Assembly: GCA_054600435.1 (NCBI GenBank)
Contig: BAAIJX010000023.1
Coordinates: forward strand, 1 to 64,000
Direction of reading: 5' to 3'
DNA from: Neophaeotheca triangularis
Lineage: Eukaryota
Length of the DNA stretch: 64,000 bases
In this document: positions 2,787 through 56,822 of the stretch, in pieces
Numbering within the stretch: the first letter of the stretch is position 1
Layout: each line of letters opens with the position of its first letter
The notes under the pieces: model-generated
Database searches by the model: none
What the model saw: the letters and a program-made list of their open reading frames with translations, nothing else
What the model was told of the DNA's origin: nothing
Made by a program: the position numbers and the translations under genes

Positions 2787-4678
2787 CTTTGCGAAACTGT
2801 TTGCTAGTAGCAGCTCATAGTCAGCCTCTGTAGGAGAGGAGTCGCGGAGTGGGGGTGTCATACTTGCGCCTGGTTCTTTCTGCGCGGTTGGTGTGAGGTG
2901 AGTAGTGAAGGGCTGTGAAGCTGAGTGACTAGTTAGTAAGTCGGTGGAAAGTGAATTATACTGTTCAAATGATGCGTACAAGGTGAGGGTGAGGGTGCGC
3001 TACGGTGGCGCGAAGGTGGAAGGGTGTGAGTGTGGAAGAGAGAGAGTAGAATGTTTAAACGCGCGCAAGTGATGAAAGTCAATGAAGCTTTTGGCGCGCA
3101 CGTGGGGAAGGAGCGACGGGGGAAGGTAAGCCGAGGAAACTGGAGGCCCGTGCTTCGAGATATTTACGGCTCTCGGCCAACATTCATGCTCCTCCTCTTA
3201 GACATTATGGGTGGAAGGCGGAGGGTCAATGCTCAGCCATCTTCTGAGAAAGACAGTTGCAAGGTGTTGTCTGAGTATGCATGGCGCCCGGAGCAAGCTC
3301 ATGAACTTTTACAACAGCAACGGTTAAAGGGTTAACCCCATTCCGGGCTACATTCTCGCTTCTGATTTGCACCGCTGAGAAGTAGAATAGGAGAGAGGAC
3401 CCAGGTATACCTATTATAGAGGAGCAGATGGGGTGCTGTCTCATAGCATGCGAGTTGCCCGGGGCAAGGAACTCAAGAATTTGTACGATAGAAACAAAAG
3501 GCTATCTGAGCAGCTTTCTGCTGCGGCTGCTAGCGAACGAAGTACTCGCGGCGAGGTTTGAGCGCTCCAATCTAGGCGCAAAATGTGACAGAGCAGCCGC
3601 GTCCAATGGATTATTCCTCAGATGATAGGGTGGGAGAATTGGGATACGTGTAGCAAGATCCTGCCCAAGCTACACCTATCGGAACGCCCTGCCACTGCTT
3701 ACTCGTGGCAGGTTTTGGGGATGATATGTAGTCCTGTTGCGGTGGGTTGGAAAGGGCTACACTGCCTACTTGGTTCGCATCTTGTCGAGTGTAGCACCTC
3801 GACTTGAAGGCCCGGTAGAGTTGGCTTGATATGGAGCGAGAGGTGAGATAACTAATAAAGCGCGGGTTGGCAGAGGTCTGAGTGGCTACTACGCTTCTCG
3901 GCGACTGTCCAACGATATTTCGTCGAGGATAAGCAACCTGATAGGCAAAGAGCCTGATAAGGCTGACGAGACAGGACAGCTTGACATGTTGAGCGGGAGG
4001 AAGTAGTTGTCAAGAAGCTGCATAGCGGGAAGACAAACCGGTGAACCGGTAGGTCAACCAGCGGGACAATGGTGAAAAGTGGTACTGGTTAGTGGTACCT
4101 AGCCTAGGTATAAGAAGTTATAGGCCACCGGTGGCATCCAAATCCGAGATGCACCGTTCACGAGCGTTTGGTTGTGGTGGAGAGGACAAGACCAGTGCGA
4201 CGGATCGCGGACGGGTACAGCCGCCGCCAACAGCTCTCCCGTCTCTCCCGATCGTCTCTCGGGGTCTCTCCTTGCTGCACGTCGTCGGGCAAGCTCGAAA
4301 TAGAAGAGGTACTCTGTAATTAACACGTATGTATGGCCAGGACGACCACGGGCAGCACCTCCCGATCATCAGCTGAACGAGCCGCCGCGATAATACTTGC
4401 ATCCTGTCCCTTTGCACATCCCACTCCTCCTTCACTTCGTGTCCTTCCTTTCTCAATGACAGCCACTTGTCTTTCCATCGCTAACCTTTAGACATCCACG
4501 AAGCACGCCCCGGCTTGCTTCTTGGCTGCAACGCAAAGCTTAGGGGGAGGTGTTTCCGAGCACTAAATCAAATCCACGCGAACAGATACCTACATACATT
4601 CGCAGTCCACAACAACCTCAAACACGATCCCCTCCCCTCCCCTCCGGAGACACTCTCCAACCACACGACTTCGCCAAC

Positions 4679-7672
4679 ATGGCGGCCGCAACGGCAAAGC
4701 CCGACGCGTCGGAAGAGAAGAAACAGCAAGCCAATGGCTCAGCCGCAAAGTCGCAGCTGTCCGCTGTTCCCCAAGCCTCGTACAACGACTACACCTCCGA
4801 TGGTGTCAAAAACAACAACCTCATAAACCTACCGTCAGGAGACTGGGAAGCCCTTGCACTGCTCACCCTGCTCGCCTTCTTTGTGCGCCTCTTCCGCATC
4901 TACCAGCCCACCAGCGTCGTCTTCGATGAAGTCCATTTCGGCGGCTTCGCCAGCAAATATATCAAGGGGAAGTTCTTCATGGATGTACACCCACCGCTCG
5001 CCAAACTGCTTCTTACACTGGCTGGATATGCTGCGGGCTTCGATGGGAATTTTGATTTCAAGGAAATTGGCAAGGACTACCTCGAGCCAGGGGTGCCCTA
5101 TGTGGCTATGCGATTGCTGCCAGCCATCTGCGGTGTCTTGACCGTACCTACCATGTTCTTGACGCTGAAGAGCTTTGGATGCAAGACCTTTACCGCGGTC
5201 ATGGGAGCTACACTGGTCATCTTCGAGAATGCCTTGGTGACGCAGTCCAGGCTGATTCTCCTGGACTCCCCATTGATCATCTTCACTGCCATGACCGCGC
5301 TCTCCTGGGTCTCTTTCCAGAACCAACACGAACTTGGTCCCTCCAATGAGTTCACCCCTTCCTGGTGGTTCTGGCTGGCCTGTAGCGGTCTCTGCTTGGG
5401 AGCAACTGTCAGCGTCAAGTGGGTTGGATTGTTCACGATTGCTTGGGTGGGGTCCATCACGGCTCTGCAGCTTTGGGTGTTGCTCGGTGACACTAAGCAC
5501 GTGACGATGAGGAGATGGTTCAAGCATCTTTTTGCGCGCATCTTCTGCTTGATTGTTATTCCTGTCGCCTTCTACATGGCCATGTTTGGCATCCACTTCC
5601 TCTGCCTCGTCAATCCAGGAGACGGAGACGGCTTCATGAGCAGCGAGTTTCAGTCTACTTTGAACAACAAGGGTATGGCTGACGTTCCCGCGGACGTCGT
5701 CTTTGGCTCAAGAGTCAGCCTGCGCCACCACAACACTCAAGGTGGCTACCTGCACTCTCACACCCACATGTTCCCCACAGGCAGCAAGCAGCAGCAGATC
5801 ACTCTTTACCCTCACAAGGACGAGAACAACGTCTGGCTTCTTGAAAACCAAACGCAGCCTATCGACTTCGCTAACGACCCTACTGGCAACACCTCCGTCA
5901 AAGGCCCTCTTGCGTGGGATGGTTTCGAGCCCCAGAACATCGTTGATGGCTCCCTGATTCGGCTGTACCATGTCGTGACTGACCGTCGTCTGCACTCGCA
6001 CGACCACCGGCCCCCGGTTACCGAAGCAGACTGGCAATACGAAGTCTCGGCATACGGCTACGAAGGGTTCGAGGGTGACGCCAACGATCTTTTCCGCGTC
6101 GACATCGTCAAGTCCATGTCAGACGGCGCAGAGGCCAAGCAGCGAATGCGCACTATCCAGACCAAATTTCGTCTGACCCATGTCATGACTGGCTGCACGC
6201 TCTTCTCACACAAGGTCAAGCTTCCGGAATGGGGCTTTGAACAACAGGAGGTTACTTGCGCGAGGGGCGGAACCCTACCAAATAGCCTTTGGTATGTCGA
6301 GAGTAACGCCTACCCACAGATGGCGCCGGAGGCCGAGAAGGTCAACTACCGTAACCCTGGCTTCTTCGGCAAATTTTGGGAACTCCAGAAAGTCATGTGG
6401 ACTACCAACGCAGGACTCGTGGACTCTCACGCCTGGGACTCGCGACCTCCAAGCTGGCCAGTTCTTCGGAGGGGTATCAACTTCTGGGGCCGCGAGAAGC
6501 GCCAGGTCTACCTTATTGGCAACCCTCTGATCTGGTGGGCTAGCACTGCCGCCATTGCAACCTACGTCTTGTTCAAAGCAATTGCCCTGCTTCGTTGGCA
6601 GCGATCTTGCAACGATTACAAGAACACGACCTTCAAACGCTTCGACTACGAACTTGGAATCACGGTTCTCGGATGGGCCTTTCATTATTTCCCCTTCTTC
6701 CTCATGCAGCGTCAATTGTTCTTGCACCACTACTTGCCTGCGCTGTACTTCGCAATCATGGCGTTCTGCCAGATCCACGACTTCGTCACGACCCGTATCA
6801 GTGGCATCAAACTGAAGGAGAACCCGATCATCGGTCGTAGCAGCATCGTCATCTTCCTCGTTGCCAGCATCGTTGTTTTCGGTTTGTACTCGCCTCTGGC
6901 CTACGGCAACCCCTGGACAAAGGCGGATTGCAAGCGTGTCAAGCTTTTCGACACTTGGGACTGGGACTGCAACAACTTCCACAACAGCGTAAGTTCTCCT
7001 TTTCCCTTGTTTTGTGTCTTCGCAGAAATGTGATCAATGTACAAAGTTATTGAAGTACCTTACTGACGTGGCCTCTTCTACTTTTAGTACTCTGACTACA
7101 CCGGAATCACACCAAGTGCCTCGAATGCGGCGGCTTCCACCAAGCCCGCAGCTGGGCCTGCACCGCCAAAAGCCGACGATCCAAAGGAAGAAGTTCACGT
7201 GACACCACAGGCTGAAGCCCCTGTCAACGCCGGCAATCCCCACGACGCAATGAGCAACGAAGCCGTCGTCGAGAAGGTTGAGTACCGCGACGAAGAGGGC
7301 AACCTTCTCGACGACGAGCAGGTTGCGGCGCTGCAAGGTTCAGTGTCTTTCTCCACGCGCTACGAAACGCGCACGAGACTTGTTGATCAGGATGGCAACG
7401 AGCTTGAGGAGGGCCCGCTCGACCCGAACGAGGAGTATGAGTACGAGTACGAAGGCGTTGTTGAGGGCGACGGAGCCGGTGTTGCGGGTACCTACGCCGA
7501 GGGTGAGGACCCCGACACGCAGATGCCGATTGCCGAGTCTGAGGCGCCGTCTGAGCCCCCGAATGCCTCTGTGGGCGACGATGTTCAGAAGGAGAGGAGC
7601 ATCGAGCAGAGTGTGGAGACTGCTGAGCCCGAGGGCGAGCTCGGCAGGGAGACCGGCAAGGATGAGCTCTAA
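4679..7672 (+). CDS. PMT1: Dolichyl-phosphate-mannose:protein O-mannosyltransferase, PMT1 subfamily; intron 6989..7087
   Basis: VVFDEVHFGGFASKYIKGKFFMDVHPPLAKL motif, MIR domains (GGYLHSH, RRLHSHD) and many TM segments. Intron GTAAGT...TACTGAC...TTTAG joins in frame to the acidic tail in ORF 7199..7672. Confidence 0.93.
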
Positions 7673-44223: not shown

Positions 44224-44333
44224 TGAACCGTACCCGATTCGAACGGGTGACCTTCTGGAAGCTCCAGGATGCAAGGAAGATAATCCTTGTATCAGAACTG
44301 GAATCAGACGCGCTACCACTGCGCCAACAGTCC
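44224..44333 (-). tRNA. tRNA-Trp(CCA) with 38-nt intron (44260..44297)
   Basis: Minus strand: GGACTGT TG GCGC AGTGGTA GCGC G TCTGA TT CCA G [intron] T CCAGA AGGTC ACCCG TTCGAAT CGGGT ACGGTTC A. Full cloverleaf, A and B boxes, intron one base 3' of the anticodon. Confidence 0.95.
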
Positions 44334-48208: not shown

Positions 48209-49653
48209 CTACGAATACCTGCTGCGAAAAGCATTCCCGATACCACTGACCCTGCTCGCCAGGCTCGCGTTGCCCTGCATATTGCTCATCAGGGCATCTT
48301 CCAGCGCTGATCGCGTCACGCTTGCGTCTGGCTTGCGGGTTAGTAACAATGCTGGGAAGGAAAGCGTCGAGGTTGGGGGCAACGTACCGTCGAGATCGCT
48401 GAAACTGCTGCCCATGCTTGGCGTCCCTTCGCTGTCACCCTCGCGACGGTGTCTGGGACTCATCTGCTGTGCTAGCTTAGCTCTCTGCTTGGGGCTCAAT
48501 GGGCCCGGGGCTTTGCGGTCAGGGTCGCTGGTTGAGGGCGCTACTGGTTGTTGCGTCGAGCTTGCGGATGAGGCTGAGGAGTCACCTGGAATTTGGGTGG
48601 CGTGAGGGATGGGCGTGCGCTGCTGGCGTTTCGAGGAGTCCCTTAGGGTCGCTGTTGGGTCTGTGGTTGTTTTTGCGGTACCCTTGGAGATTTTAGAGCC
48701 CGCTGCAAAGGGGAGGAAACCGCCTGAAGATGAGGCTTCGTCGTCTTCGTCGTTGTCAAGGGAGCCGTCGTTTGATGAGATGGCTGAGCGGGAAGGTACT
48801 GATGGTCTCTTTCCTTCGAGGCGAGACTGTACTGGAGCTTTGCCGTCTGTTGCAATCTGGTCTTGGCCTTTACCTTCTTGCTTGCTGGACTCTATCTGCT
48901 CGTTCTCAGGATCATCCGGGGAGGAATCGCTCGGGTCCTTAACTGGCTGGCGTGGACGGCGTTGGTAACTGCCGGAAGACCTGAAATGACGACCGGTAGA
49001 TTGTTTCGATGTCGGTGTAAATACGCGGCTTTGTGTGACTGTATTTGTGGAAGCTGTGCGGGATAGTGGAGGAGCATCCACTTTCGGTGTACTCGGGGTT
49101 GATCCTACACCGCTGAGTGACAAGGGCGCTACTTTCTGGCTGGTGACGATAGGTTGAGGTTTTAGATCTGAGCGCACTCGATTAGGTACTCTCGTCAAGT
49201 TAAGGGATGGCTTGTGGCGGCCTACTTACCTTTCTTCTGCTCGCCATCAGCCTGCACGCCACCCGCAACACCCCCAAGCATAGCCATCTGCTTTCTGACT
49301 CCTTCGAAATGCCGCTCGTAAAGCCAAGCAGCCTGCATCATTAAAAAGCTCAAGTTCACTTCGAATTTCTCGCTAATCTTCTGCCAGTCTAGGTCTTTGG
49401 GGTTCGAACCCTTGCTAGAGATCAAAGACCACAGCGCGGCATCTTTGCTGGCATCCCATGACACTTGCTCGGGCTCTTGGAAGTCACCACGAGGGAATGG
49501 TAGACGTATTAGGGCTGTGTAGTGAACTTGAGCAACATCCTCGTCAAGGGCAGGTCTTATGGACTCAGATTCGGCAGTGTCCTGCACAGTTTTGGGCGAT
49601 CTGGCATATCTTTGGCTTGATTCCGCAACCGCCTCATCTGGTTGTTGAGGCAT
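48209..49653 (-). CDS. ATG29: Autophagy-related protein 29; introns 49168..49229 and 48328..48387
   Basis: N-terminal HYTALIRLPFPRGDFQEP...WDASKDAALW...FLMMQAAWLYERH and C-terminal SMGSSFSDLDDASVTRSALEDAL after splicing. Confidence 0.87.
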
Positions 49654-50869: not shown

Positions 50870-51095
50870 CAAGGTCGTTATGTTCGTCACTTGAACTTGC
50901 CGTCGTCGCAAAAGCCAGCCAGAGAGGATCAAGTGCGGGCTTCGAATTCGTGAAGCGCCAAGATTGTTGAATTCTCGCTTACGAGAAGTCTTGGCGGCGC
51001 TAACAAAGCCCACCTTCGCCGACCACCTTCGAATTTGTTGCAACTTCACGAGAGTCGAACGAGCAGACAGCGACAGTCGACAACCCACTGCAATA
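50870..51095. promoter_or_regulatory. Bidirectional RPL21/RPS9 promoter with dyad-symmetric elements
   Basis: Short region between divergent ribosomal protein genes. Inverted pairs CGCCAAGA/TCTTGGCG, TTCTCG/CGAGAA and TCGTGAAG/CTTCACGA. Confidence 0.65.
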
Positions 51096-52330
51096 ATGGC
51101 CCCGTAAGTATTCCCATGTACCATACTACAGATCAGTCAAAGCAGCAGTTCCAGCACAGGTGTGAGATGCGACCATGATGCCATACGATGCACACACGAG
51201 ACCGCCGCGCCCACCATCCAGGGATTGAACAGCATATCGCGCACACGAGCAGGGAATCATTGCGGCAGCAGTACAACAACTTAGATCAGATGGCAGTAGT
51301 ACGGAAGAACACGTTGGCAAATTGGCAGCATGGGCGCAGACGTATGCGTTGATCGCCCAGCAGCTGGATAGCTGGACGGGAAAGAGCCTTTTCCATGGTC
51401 TTCAGATCACACTACAACCTGCTTGACCGACCAGGTTACCACCACCACCTACACTGCGATCTGGACATGTCCCCAGTCACCGGACTCGACGCATCTGTTA
51501 CCAGCTGGAACTGCTGCTTTGATATTGAGCTGGTCTAGAATCCCACCATGTTCAAAACACTAACACCACAAAAGACGCAGTTACTCCAAGACCTACAAGG
51601 TCCCCCGTCGTCCCTTCGAGTCGGCTCGTCTGTAAGCGATATCCTGCCCAATGAGTGCGAGCTTGTCTCCGCTTAAGGCCATGGTCCTAACGATTTCCCA
51701 GCGACTCCGAGTTGAAGGTTGTCGGCGAGTACGGTCTTCGCAACAAGCGCGAGGTCTGGCGTGTCCAGCTCACTCTCTCCAAGATTCGTCGTGCTGCCCG
51801 GTGAGCTTAGAATACGCACCTAGCAGAAGCAAGTACAACGATCTAACTCAACCTAGTGAGCTCCTTACGCTCGATGAGAAGGACCCCAAGCGTCTCTTTG
51901 AAGGCAATGCCCTCATTCGCCGTCTGGTCCGTGTCGGTGTGCTCGATGAGTCCCGCATGAAGCTCGATTACGTCCTGGCCCTGAAGGTCGAGGACTTCTT
52001 GGAGCGCCGCCTCCAGACCTGTGTCTACAAGCTCGGTCTCGCCAAGTCCATCCACCACGCCCGTGTCCTGATCCGCCAGCGCCACATCCGGTACGTTATC
52101 GCATCCCTCATTTGACCGGAAGGTATTCTCATACTAACAAACTATACAGTGTCGGCAAGCAGATTGTCAACGTGCCGTCTTTCATCGTCCGTCTCGACAG
52201 CCAAAAGCACATCGACTTCGCCCTTACCTCGCCATTTGGTGGTGGACGTCCCGGCCGTGTCAGGAGAAAGAAGGCCAAGGCCGCTGAGAAGAAGGACGAG
52301 GGTGGTGATGAGGAGGAGGAGGAGGAGTAG
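51096..52330 (+). CDS. RPS9: 40S ribosomal protein S9 (uS4); introns 51104..51574, 51632..51701, 51801..51856, 52091..52149; 192 aa
   Basis: Spliced product [43 protein letters not shown]...[42 protein letters not shown]. Confidence 0.97.
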
Positions 52331-52772
52331 ATACTTCCTCGGCTTAGCGTCAACCTCTTGCCTTCATGGCCGCGCTGTAGCGATTGATTCTAGCGTAGTA
52401 GTAAGATCAAAAGCTTCGGCATGTTACTTCTCCAAAATCTTTACCTCCGAGTTGCAGGGGTCTTGTCCGGGTATGTAACTCCTTAATACTGAGAGGCCAG
52501 GATCCCCTGACTCAGTTTAAAAAAAAAATAGCTTGTCTACACAGACATTCCTTGTAAACTGCTGCCGCACGCATTGGAGGTGACAATCCGACATTGACAT
52601 TGGCTGCACCGTGCGGGAGCTCAACATCATAATGGTGCATATGGATTCGCCAACCTAAACGCTACGCAGCAGTTTTTGTGTCATACTACAGTAATGTACA
52701 TAATTCTATGGTGTCGAACATCTGTTAAGGTACAAAGTTCCCTCTAATCACCAGGACTAGGTAGTTTGCTCA

Positions 52773-53726: not shown

Positions 53727-54290
53727 GCTGGTGGTTGCGCGGTTAATGTACAGCAGTTGTCATTCCTTGTGAGTCGAAGTTAAGGTAGGTAAGGTACAGA
53801 GCAATCCATGTCAATGCGCGTGCATGACATCGATGGATGGATTGCTTGGCGCATGTCGCATGGACGTCGGCATTCTGCGAGGCATACACCGACGGCGCCG
53901 GAGCCATACAAACAAAGCAACAAGGCGGCGGCAACGACGACCTTACTGCTACTGCAACACACGACTGCAACTGCAACTGCAACTGCCTATGGCTGGGACA
54001 CGATACCGAGAGATAGCCTATATCACGCACAACGACGTACTGCTTTGAGCGATTCGAGAAGCGACCGACTCCGACATTCGAACTCGTCACCTGCGGCCTG
54101 AGCATCAACAACCTAGAGGCAGCGACACTCGTTCACCTCACCTCACTCGATCTCACTTGCACACCTACACTTTACCCATGTGCGCTCGTCTAGGCAGGCA
54201 CTGTGCGACCTCGCTTCTCTTCACTTCTTGCTCTTCCCCTCGAAAACTTGCTTCGGCCACTTGATTGCGTTTGACCCTCGCACCCACATC

Positions 54291-56822
54291 ATGTCGCCAA
54301 ACGGCAGCATTGCTGCCTCCCAGCTACGGCAGCTCATATTCTACCACATCGACAATGATTTCCTCGACAATGCGAACTTCCTAGCCGGCCGCCTTCATGC
54401 CATGGAGCCACGCAACCCGGACGGTGCGCACCTGCTGGCCCTCACTTACTTGCGCCTTCGAAGGCACAAGGCTGCGTATGACGCCGCGCATAAGTACGGG
54501 TCAAATGGTAGACATCTAGGGTGCGCTTTTGTGTTTGCGCAAGCATGTCTGAATCTGAAGAGAAGTCTGGAGGGTGCTACGGCGCTGGACAAGGCTCGGG
54601 CGCAATGGCGGGCTAAGAACCACTTTGGCAAGCATTCGGATTCGACAAGGAGGCATTTACCGGACGCTGCAGCGGCCAACACGCTGCTGGGCAAGCTATG
54701 GGAAGCTCATGGGGATATGCGAAAGGCTGGCGATTGTTATATCGAGGCCCACAAGGCCAATCCGTTCATCTGGGATGCGTTTGATGGGCTATGCAAGATT
54801 GGCGCCGACTTGAACATACCGAACATGTTCAAAGCAACAGTGGAGTTGAGTCATACGACGTCGACATCTTTTGATTCCACAGTACCTGAAGTTCATTCGG
54901 GGGAGGCGCCCGCTACATTACAGCCACTCACCTCCAATACCAGCTTTACGAAACAGCCTCCTACGCGGACAGAGGATCCTTTTGCTCCGTCTAGGGAAGC
55001 TACGGAGGAGAGGGAGCAAGGACCTGGTTCGTTTGCACTTCCCAAAGTTAAGAGCAAGGGAACGTTGGCGAATACGGTCAGGTCTGAGTGGGACACGCCG
55101 ACTGGTAATAGCGCTCCATTCGGAGAGGACACAGCCATGGGAGGAGTCACAGCCGAAGATGTGTTCCAACCCCCACCAGCACCAGCGCGAAGAACTAGGA
55201 TGGGTCACCACTCTGAGGCGACCTCCGAAAGGCCCAGGAGACCAGACCTTCGCACTCATTCTCAAGCCAGCACAGATAACTCACATGATCAAGACAACTC
55301 TCAAAACCAGCGTATGCCCGGCGCTGCGATGCACAAGCGAACAGCCTCTGGCCAGGTCCAACAAGCTAATGCCAACACTGCCTCAGACCCGTCCGCTCCT
55401 CCAAGGAGAAGCAATCGCTTATTCGGTCAAGGAACGTCAACTAGGAGTACAAGGGCCACTGGCGATTCGACGGCTTCTATTGCAGGGCAGGCGGACAGAC
55501 AAGCGCGTGCAGCGAAACCAGCAACAGGCACTCGAGGGCGCATGGGGTCGACAGTAGGACGGGTGGTCAGCGGTAATCGAAAGGTTCTACCACCGGCCGA
55601 CAAGGAGAAGCCGACTCGAGCACCGAGCAGGAACAGCGAAAAGAGCGCTGCTGTGCCGAACCCGGCGGCGCAAAAGTACCCTGCTGCGCCGCTATATGAC
55701 TTTCGGGCAGAGCAAGAGGCTTTGGCTTCTCTACTCACGCTGTTCAAAACATTGGCACAGGGCTACTACAATTCGGTACGCTTTGATACAGCTTCTGCAA
55801 TCGCCACATTCCGAGGCCTGCCCACAGCTCAGCGCGACTCCCCATGGGTAATGCAGCAACTCGGCCGAGCTTACTACGAAGCCTCAGACTACCCAGCCGC
55901 ACGCGACGCCTTTGCACGATCCCTCAAACTCCAGCCCTCAGACCTAACCGACATGGAAATCTACTCGACCGTCCTCTGGCACCTCAAAGCCGAGACCCCC
56001 CTCGCATACCTCTGCCATCTCCTCCGCGACCAGGACTTCCTGGCGCCAGAGACTTGGTGTTCCCTCGGTAACGCTTTCTCCCTCTCCCGCGAACACGACC
56101 AAGCCATCTCAGCTTTCAAGCGCGCAACACAGCTGAACCCGAACTTCGCCTACGCCTACACGCTCATGGGCCACGAGCACATCGCCAACGAAGACTACGA
56201 CGCGGCGCTAACCTGCTTCCGGCAAACCGTCGCCCTCGACCGCCGCAGCTACGGCGGCTGGTACGGCCTCGGCAAGTCCTACGAACGCATGTCTAAGCTC
56301 GAGCAAGCCGAACACCACTACCGCATCGCTGCCGCGCTCAACCCCTCCAACGCCACCCTCCTCGTCTGCATCGGCGTCGTCCTTGAGCGCCAGCGCAACC
56401 GCAAAGCTGCTCTTACCCACTACACGCGAGCTCTCGAGATCAGCCCGTCGTCCGCGCTTGCGAGGTTCAAGAAGGCGCGTGTGCTCATGCATGTGCGTGC
56501 GTACGCCGAGGCTTTGGAGGAGCTCGAGCGCTTGCGCGACCAGGCGCCCGATGAGGCGAATGTCTGGTTCTTGCTGGGCAAGTGCTATAAGGGGTTGGGA
56601 GGGCGCAGTGAGGCTTTGCGCGCTTTTACTACCGCGTTGAATTTGGATGTTAAGGTGAGTTTTCCCTCTTTCTTCTCTCACTCCTTTCTGGTGCTTTGGT
56701 TGTGAAAGCTGTTGGTGTATGGGTGTGCTGACTTCTTGCTTTTTCAGGCTGCGCCGTTCATCAAAGAGGCCATGGAAGCGCTGGACGAGGACGACGAAGA
56801 GGCGAGCAGTGATGAGGAATGA
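54291..56822 (+). CDS. CDC27: Anaphase-promoting complex subunit Cdc27/APC3 (BimA); intron 56655..56747
   Basis: N-terminal QLRQLIFYHIDN...NANFLAGRL, long linker, and a C-terminal TPR array (MEIYSTVLWHL, PETWCSLGNAFSLSREHDQAI, FAYAYTLMGHE). Confidence 0.93.

Follow-up and report, generated by a model that had tools for sequence, protein, structure and literature searches.

The RPS9 gene and splicing of its first intron

The region 51096-52330 on the forward (+) strand of the window, by which we mean the whole stretch of 64,000 nt of DNA that was analysed, was read from its sequence as the gene for the ribosomal protein uS4/RPS9, with the ATG at 51096. The 5' part of this gene is organized as follows, with all positions being those of the window:

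51096..51103, + strand: exon 1, ATGGCCCC, 8 nt, encoding Met-Ala and two bases of a Pro codon; the X12 RNA contig covers 51065-51103 and joins to 51575
51104..51574, + strand: intron 1, 471 nt, GT..AG, phase 2, from the X12 joint 51103 to 51575 and from the sequence
51560..51564, + strand: branch-point motif CTAAC, with the branch A at 51563, the only CTRAY in intron 1
51575..51631, + strand: exon 2, from the pieces and joints of the X12 RNA contig

A 735-nt RNA contig of the same species, from run X12, joins 51103 exactly to 51575 and skips 471 nt. Because of this joint, intron 1 can be taken as real and spliced at these sites, and the boundaries that the preliminary description of this DNA had given to it are confirmed. 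The same contig also lacks introns 2 and 3 of the gene, of 70 and 56 nt, and intron 4 is 59 nt long according to the sequence reading. Intron 1 is thus seven to eight times the length of the neighbouring introns of the gene. It begins with GTAAGT and ends with the AG at 51573-51574, and the distance from the first base of CTAAC to the last base of the intron is 14 nt. The assignment of the branch to this motif in the preliminary description agrees with its being the sole CTRAY. A nested (twin) intron was also considered and was rejected, since intron 1 has no second branch motif and the RNA contig contains a single direct joint. If intron 1 is retained, the reading frame stops at once, at CCG TAA, after three codons.

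Two further observations concern the surroundings of the gene and its transcripts. Run X7, listed with some doubt as DNA of another organism, contains a 163-nt contig that matches exons 2-3 perfectly but lacks intron 2 (window 51575-51800); the presence of spliced RPS9 sequence in what is supposed to be a DNA run may reflect carry-over or a mislabelled library. On the 3' side of RPS9 lies a long open frame (54117-56705, + strand), for which the nearest protein-atlas clusters are the TPR proteins BimA/CDC27 (anaphase-promoting complex subunit 3), commonest in Ascomycota.

The closing stem and the looped-out interior

Intron 1 had been described as a large folded RNA closed by a perfect 19-bp long-range stem, with further helices on both sides of that stem and in the interior. 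Folding of the intron gave these elements:

51136..51155, + strand: 5' arm of the main stem, paired perfectly over 19 nt and closed by a G.U at 51136; pair probabilities 0.98-1.0
51159..51171, + strand: 5' side of the inner continuation, GGUG at 51159-51162 and AGAUGCG at 51165-51171; pair probability 0.73-0.99
51172..51489, + strand: looped-out interior of about 320 nt, unconserved and folding no better than chance
51490..51502, + strand: 3' side of the inner continuation, CGCAUCU at 51490-51496 and UACC at 51499-51502; pair probability 0.73-0.99
51504..51523, + strand: 3' arm of the main stem, with the perfect 19-nt inverted repeat; pair probabilities 0.98-1.0
51527..51553, + strand: local hairpin between the stem and the branch point, 51527-51534 with 51545-51553; p 0.89-0.97, present in the minimum-energy fold

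The 19-bp stem itself was borne out by the complementarity of its arms and by their pair probabilities. The arms at 51137-51155 and 51504-51522 are 19 nt long, 100% complementary and have 348 nt between them. The core of the stem comprises 24 bp interrupted by no more than 5 bulged nt, its cofold energy is -40.5 kcal/mol, and up to about 37 long-range pairs can be formed. No inverted repeat within 900 nt in the 64-kb window is longer than this 19-bp repeat. When the arm sequence was searched in the window allowing at most 3 mismatches, the only matches were the two arm sites themselves, with a chance expectation of 0.04, and none of 100 shuffles reached these two matches. The second-best inverted repeat in the window is a perfect 17-bp hairpin with a 19-nt loop (7264-7280/7300-7316), which sits just 3' of a long open frame ending at 7033.

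The extensions that had been proposed for the stem did not hold. The outward helix AGAUCAG/CUGGUCU has a pairing probability of only about 0.02, because its CUGGU sits in the local hairpin between the stem and the branch point. The inward one, ACAGGUGU/GCAUCUGU, has a probability of about 0.006, the actual continuation being GGUG/UACC and AGAUGCG/CGCAUCU, whose pairs have probabilities of 0.92-0.99 with one wobble pair at 0.73.

The whole intron folds with a z of -3.08 on the sense strand, a value reached by none of 100 shuffles, and of -0.93 on the antisense strand. For the segment 51170-51490 the minimum free energy is -87.4 kcal/mol versus -89.2 +/- 5.1 kcal/mol in shuffles (z +0.35); among 100 dinucleotide shuffles, 64 fold as well as or better than it. 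Therefore, the z of the whole intron derives from the closing stem. All the short interior motifs listed in the preliminary description are present where it placed them, but their pairing is at the chance level expressed by this z. With an interior that has no more structure than chance gives and is not conserved between relatives, the large folded RNA cannot be maintained as a description of the intron. What intron 1 contains is a closing stem that is real, strongly non-random and evolutionarily maintained, and not a large folded RNA.

Orthologous introns and the maintenance of the stem

Metagenome contigs were scanned with exon 4 (77 aa); 575 stretches matched, of which 455 proved to be relatives, and the analysis used the best 80 of these 455. 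At least 44 of the 80 loci have no intron at the MAP|R site and read MAPR.., and in some of the 80 an intron lies immediately before Val12 instead. Short introns of 50, 52, 73, 77, 98 (twice, identical), 100 and 149 nt occupy the identical phase-2 site after ATGGCNCC in several lineages, and five long ones were also found there; loci L016, L008, L007 and L023 are incomplete contigs with parts of such introns. The five long introns and their folding z, from 40 dinucleotide shuffles, are:

L034: 451 nt; z sense -2.31, antisense +0.07
L055: 411 nt; z sense -3.43, antisense -1.47
L057: 373 nt; z sense -6.93, antisense -6.63
L049: 531 nt; z sense -5.96, antisense -4.28
L026: 178 nt; z sense -3.81, antisense -4.38

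Every one of these long orthologous introns folds with a long-range closing stem. Counting the window, z favours the sense strand in four of six lineages, being about equal on both strands in L057 and slightly reversed in L026. The strength of the stems was compared with real-sequence controls, that is, random segments of the same length from the window, L049, L055 and L057, using the most stable duplex that any 30-nt stretch of the 5' part forms with the last 140 nt at the 3' end. This value is -47.9 kcal/mol for the intron of the window and -46.0, -40.4, -45.3 and -43.5 kcal/mol for the four orthologues of 373-531 nt, and in none of these five cases was it reached by any of 300 controls. The stem of the 178-nt intron L026 is weaker (-37.5 kcal/mol, reached by 8 of 300 controls). 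Two coarser metrics discriminated poorly: the whole-arm duplex energy of the window intron was matched by 30 of 200 real-sequence controls, and an end-to-end count of at least 37 pairs was reached by 6 of 60. In the minimum-energy fold of L055, CUGUGG at 3316-3321 is also paired with CCACAG at 3710-3715, including the AG of the 3' splice site, which may be due to chance.

The intron sequences are almost unalignable. In local BLAST among the long introns the best match was between the 3' arm of the window and L034, with an E of 0.084, and no interior block shared among the long introns was detected by k-mer or local BLAST comparison. Two anchors, GCAG..TTC and AGAUGC, recur in the 5' arm of the window, L055 and L034 at a distance of 15-16 nt from each other, with their partners CUGC and GCAUCU in the 3' arm; AGAUGC is invariant in the three sequences. 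L057 has the same GCAG/CUGC and GAUG/CAUC boxes. Whole-intron MAFFT alignments of 7 and 3 sequences misplaced the arms and for this reason were not used for pair counts; instead, the minimum-energy pairs of each of the three sequences were read in register from the anchors.

In the resulting pair tables for the window, L055 and L034, six columns hold pairing through two-sided changes. Four of them follow TTC (C:G/G:C/G.U, A:U/A:U/G:C, G:C/G:C/U.G and C:G/G.U/U:A, the pairs of the three sequences being separated by slashes) and two follow AGAUGC (G:C/A:U/A:U and unpaired/A:U/G:C). The preliminary description had held that a lack of conservation or covariation in orthologous introns would speak against its proposal; in the long introns the stem is instead preserved and shows compensating changes. 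Between the closely related L049 and L016, identity amounts to 83% and 77% in the two arms versus 61% in the loop, which also has 48 gaps, and among 60 long-range pairs 46 are unchanged, 4 have one-sided changes that keep pairing, 7 are broken and 3 fall in a gap, with no two-sided change.

It had also been argued that the G:U pairs of the stem work only on the transcribed strand. When each 5' arm was aligned to the reverse complement of its own 3' arm in six lineages (L016 was omitted as kin of L049), the transition mismatches between arms were 14 of the G.U type versus 11 of the A.C type, with no sense-strand bias. Thus, the argument from G:U pairs does not generalise to the orthologues. Single mismatches are tolerated by long helices.

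The relationships among the RPS9 loci were not resolved by the DNA identity of exon 4, since third positions are highly identical throughout this strongly expressed gene. Among the 80 loci, the upstream neighbour of RPS9 (48209-49225, - strand) has relatives in L055 (52% identity) and L049 (42%) only. Therefore, the long-intron loci with enough flank, L055 and L049, belong with the window to one fairly deep clade, which fits a single origin of the long intron form. An unconstrained inverted repeat would not be expected to outlast such divergence.

Variation within the species was observed in X2, another sample of the same organism, in which the whole region lies in one contig and intron 1 is kept. 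X2 differs from the window by 12 substitutions and one 1-nt insertion in intron 1 and by 4 substitutions in the other 730 nt; 8 of the 13 intron 1 differences fall in the looped-out interior. The sole substitution within the 19-bp stem, 51505 C>T, lies opposite G51154 and turns a G:C pair into G.U. Two other changes are 51136 G>T, which abolishes the closing G.U wobble pair, and 51134 C>T, located in the improbable outer helix. With about 3 changes in about 78 nt of stem regions versus 8 in about 329 nt of loop, the stem is not visibly less variable than the loop in this comparison, but the counts are very low. The alignment of X21, a more distant contig, begins only at 51587 and its intron end cannot be aligned, so that it is uninformative for intron 1; the spliced X7 fragment likewise gives no information on this intron.

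Possible roles and origin of the stem

To our knowledge, zipper stems have been characterised almost solely in budding yeast. The folding and comparative data make it reasonably probable that the stem of intron 1 is a conserved zipper stem. Pairing between a stretch located about 20-35 nt past the 5' splice site and another lying about 30-40 nt ahead of the branch point would loop out about 320 nt of unconstrained sequence; most likely, the stem draws the two splicing signals together, and the intron is spliced as a short one would be despite its length. We infer that the stem forms in vivo, that it is needed for efficient splicing and that it has been maintained by selection for splicing.

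The geometry of the stem can be compared with the definition of zipper stems that was modelled for S. cerevisiae and is given in the available part of its source (PMC12350175), which includes a linker sum of 42-85 nt. In the window the stem base starts at intron nt 33 and in the five orthologues L034, L055, L057, L049 and L026 at nt 17-20, in agreement with the start that the available text of this source describes (PMC12350175). The end of the stem lies 40 nt before the branch A in the window and 32-35 nt before it in the same five orthologues, where that text asks for at least 20 nt (PMC12350175). Compared with the stable stem of 6 bp or more, with no more than 5 bulged nt, that is defined there (PMC12350175), the core in the window has its 24 bp and -40.5 kcal/mol. 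The linker sum of the window, 26+34 = 60 nt, is within the S. cerevisiae-derived range as it appears in the accessible text (PMC12350175). When weak outermost pairs are counted, the sums are 42 nt in L049 and L026, 40 in L055, 38 in L057 and 36 in L034, so that the last three are just under the minimum of 42 nt modelled for S. cerevisiae in the same portion of that work (PMC12350175). The spacing of the splicing signals in the zipped form is about the size of the short introns found at the same site in other fungi.

In S. cerevisiae, introns with zipper stems include those of RPS17B, RPL7A, RPL7B and others, as listed in the part of the study available (PMC12350175). The RPS9 stem resembles them in lying in the long first intron of a ribosomal protein gene and in having a linker sum within range. 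It differs from them in its host, a filamentous-type ascomycete in which the other introns of the gene have 56-70 nt, and in being far longer, with its 24-bp core and up to about 37 long-range pairs. Moreover, the yeast stems are described, in the sections available, as showing little conservation between species and as difficult to support through covariation (PMC12350175), whereas the RPS9 stem is conserved with covariation across diverged lineages. A limited literature search found no description of such an RPS9 intron structure in filamentous fungi. The intron would represent a very strong zipper stem in a short-intron fungus, with its geometry kept, its pairs compensated and its loop drifting freely, and would lend itself naturally to testing whether RNA structure enables long introns to act as short ones.

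It is possible, but somewhat unlikely, that the stem, alone or besides its role as a zipper, is the operator of a feedback loop in which uS4 controls the splicing of intron 1. In such a loop, excess uS4 would bind GCAG/CUGC, the internal loop and AGAUGC/GCAUCU and alter splicing, and the unspliced RNA would halt translation after three codons. The family has a record of this kind of control: in the part of PMC3315480 that was available, the introns of RPS9A/B mediate cross-regulation in S. cerevisiae, where RPS9 is autoregulated via its intron, and RpS9 of Drosophila regulates its own splicing via alternative splicing. In the yeast introns, long-range structures join the intron ends, and an internal two-way junction in the upper stem inhibits RPS9A splicing and promotes the association of Rps9B, which associates with the RPS9A intron when a helical element is present (PMC4856989, available portion). 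A related feedback involving a zipper stem is reported for RPL7B in the accessible part of PMC12311795.

The RPS9 intron studied here is similar to those of S. cerevisiae RPS9A/RPS9B in belonging to the same gene family and in being a long intron directly behind the start codon. As in the part of the yeast work available (PMC4856989), long-range pairing would bring the intron ends together. Retention leads to a premature stop in both, here an immediate one in frame. Furthermore, two stretches of the stem are invariant in sequence in three lineages while the adjacent pairs covary; however, the invariant boxes may simply reflect limited divergence among the three sequences. Against the likeness stands the position of the element, since the inhibitory one of S. 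cerevisiae is the internal upper-stem junction, according to the same available text, and here the interior is unstructured and unconserved and the only conserved helices lie in the closing stem.

The cDNA-like contigs L016 (1-1233) and L023 (1-1610) also bear on feedback. In both, the RPS9 frame is open from exon 2 to the stop (189-190 aa), and introns 2-4 are therefore absent, while intron-1 sequence with the branch motif and AG is kept directly upstream of exon 2. They look like transcripts that retain intron 1 alone, which would fit a slow or regulated removal of this intron; however, they could be genomic copies without introns 2-4, and the RNA contig of the window's own species is fully spliced.

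A more specific proposal, that the invariant GCAG/CUGC and AGAUGC/GCAUCU around the small internal loop form a uS4 operator in a clade of filamentous ascomycetes, with the zipper doubling as the binding site, we regard as unlikely. If it were true, a splicing enhancer would underlie a eukaryotic equivalent of bacterial S4 repression, and L016 and L023, contigs otherwise fully spliced that keep intron 1, would be the footprint of uS4 control. RPS9 is the one ribosomal protein gene for which splicing feedback has been reported in yeast as well as in animals, and the intron is therefore well suited to the question of whether one helix can serve both as splicing enhancer and as feedback operator. 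The zipper stem is the simpler reading and accounts for everything seen.

With regard to the origin of the intron, it is decidedly unlikely that intron 1 is, or descends from, an introner-like element or a foldback/MITE-type insertion, of which the stem would be the terminal inverted repeat, a by-product of this origin and not a feature selected for RPS9 splicing. Fungal introner-like elements and the symmetrical sister (stw)introns of Pezizomycotina are described, in the available parts of PMC3609843 and PMC8469720, as longer than regular introns and multi-copy, with stable symmetrical, hairpin or inverted-repeat structures and compensating mutations. Intron 1 shares this architecture: it has 471 nt versus the 56-70 nt of the other introns, a stable structure (z -3.08) and a perfect 19-bp inverted repeat around an unconstrained interior, and the mismatches between its arms show no strand bias.

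However, the elements in question are recent gains at new positions that decay fast (PMC3609843, PMC8469720, parts available), their quick degeneration being reported in the accessible part of PMC3609843. The RPS9 intron lies at an old phase-2 site, which in relatives is occupied by short introns and by the five diverged, long and structured ones, whose arms differ and still pair. Neither the arms nor the intron have a second copy in 445,977 bases (the window and the 80 loci), and no comparable inverted repeat exists elsewhere in the 64-kb window. Of the marks of a MITE or foldback element the inverted repeat is present and the target-site duplication is absent (..CAG | arm ... arm | TAT..), as no direct repeat of at least 2 nt flanks the arms. 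As an account of the origin, an ancient insertion of introner type that has since been kept because its arms zip it out of the way is still reasonable. The zipper model leaves the retention of the loop unexplained.

It is highly improbable that intron 1 hosts a stable non-coding RNA, a snoRNA or other, with the stem as its processing or terminal helix, a possibility that the preliminary description had raised. Introns of ribosomal-protein genes often host snoRNAs and intron 1 is unusually long, but Rfam at E<=10 on both strands of 50900-52500 gave no match in it, a motif search for C/D boxes found no CUGA D box and no RUGAUGA C box on its sense strand, and its interior folds no better than chance and is unconserved among orthologues, the close pair L049/L016 included. 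The C/D boxes, conserved body and Rfam family match of an intron-hosted snoRNA are thus all absent from intron 1. At gathering score, Rfam has no match in intron 1 and a sole match in the whole 64-kb window, a tRNA gene at 44224-44333 on the - strand (RF00005, 47.2 bits), which probably has an intron, because it spans 110 nt versus the 71 positions of the model.
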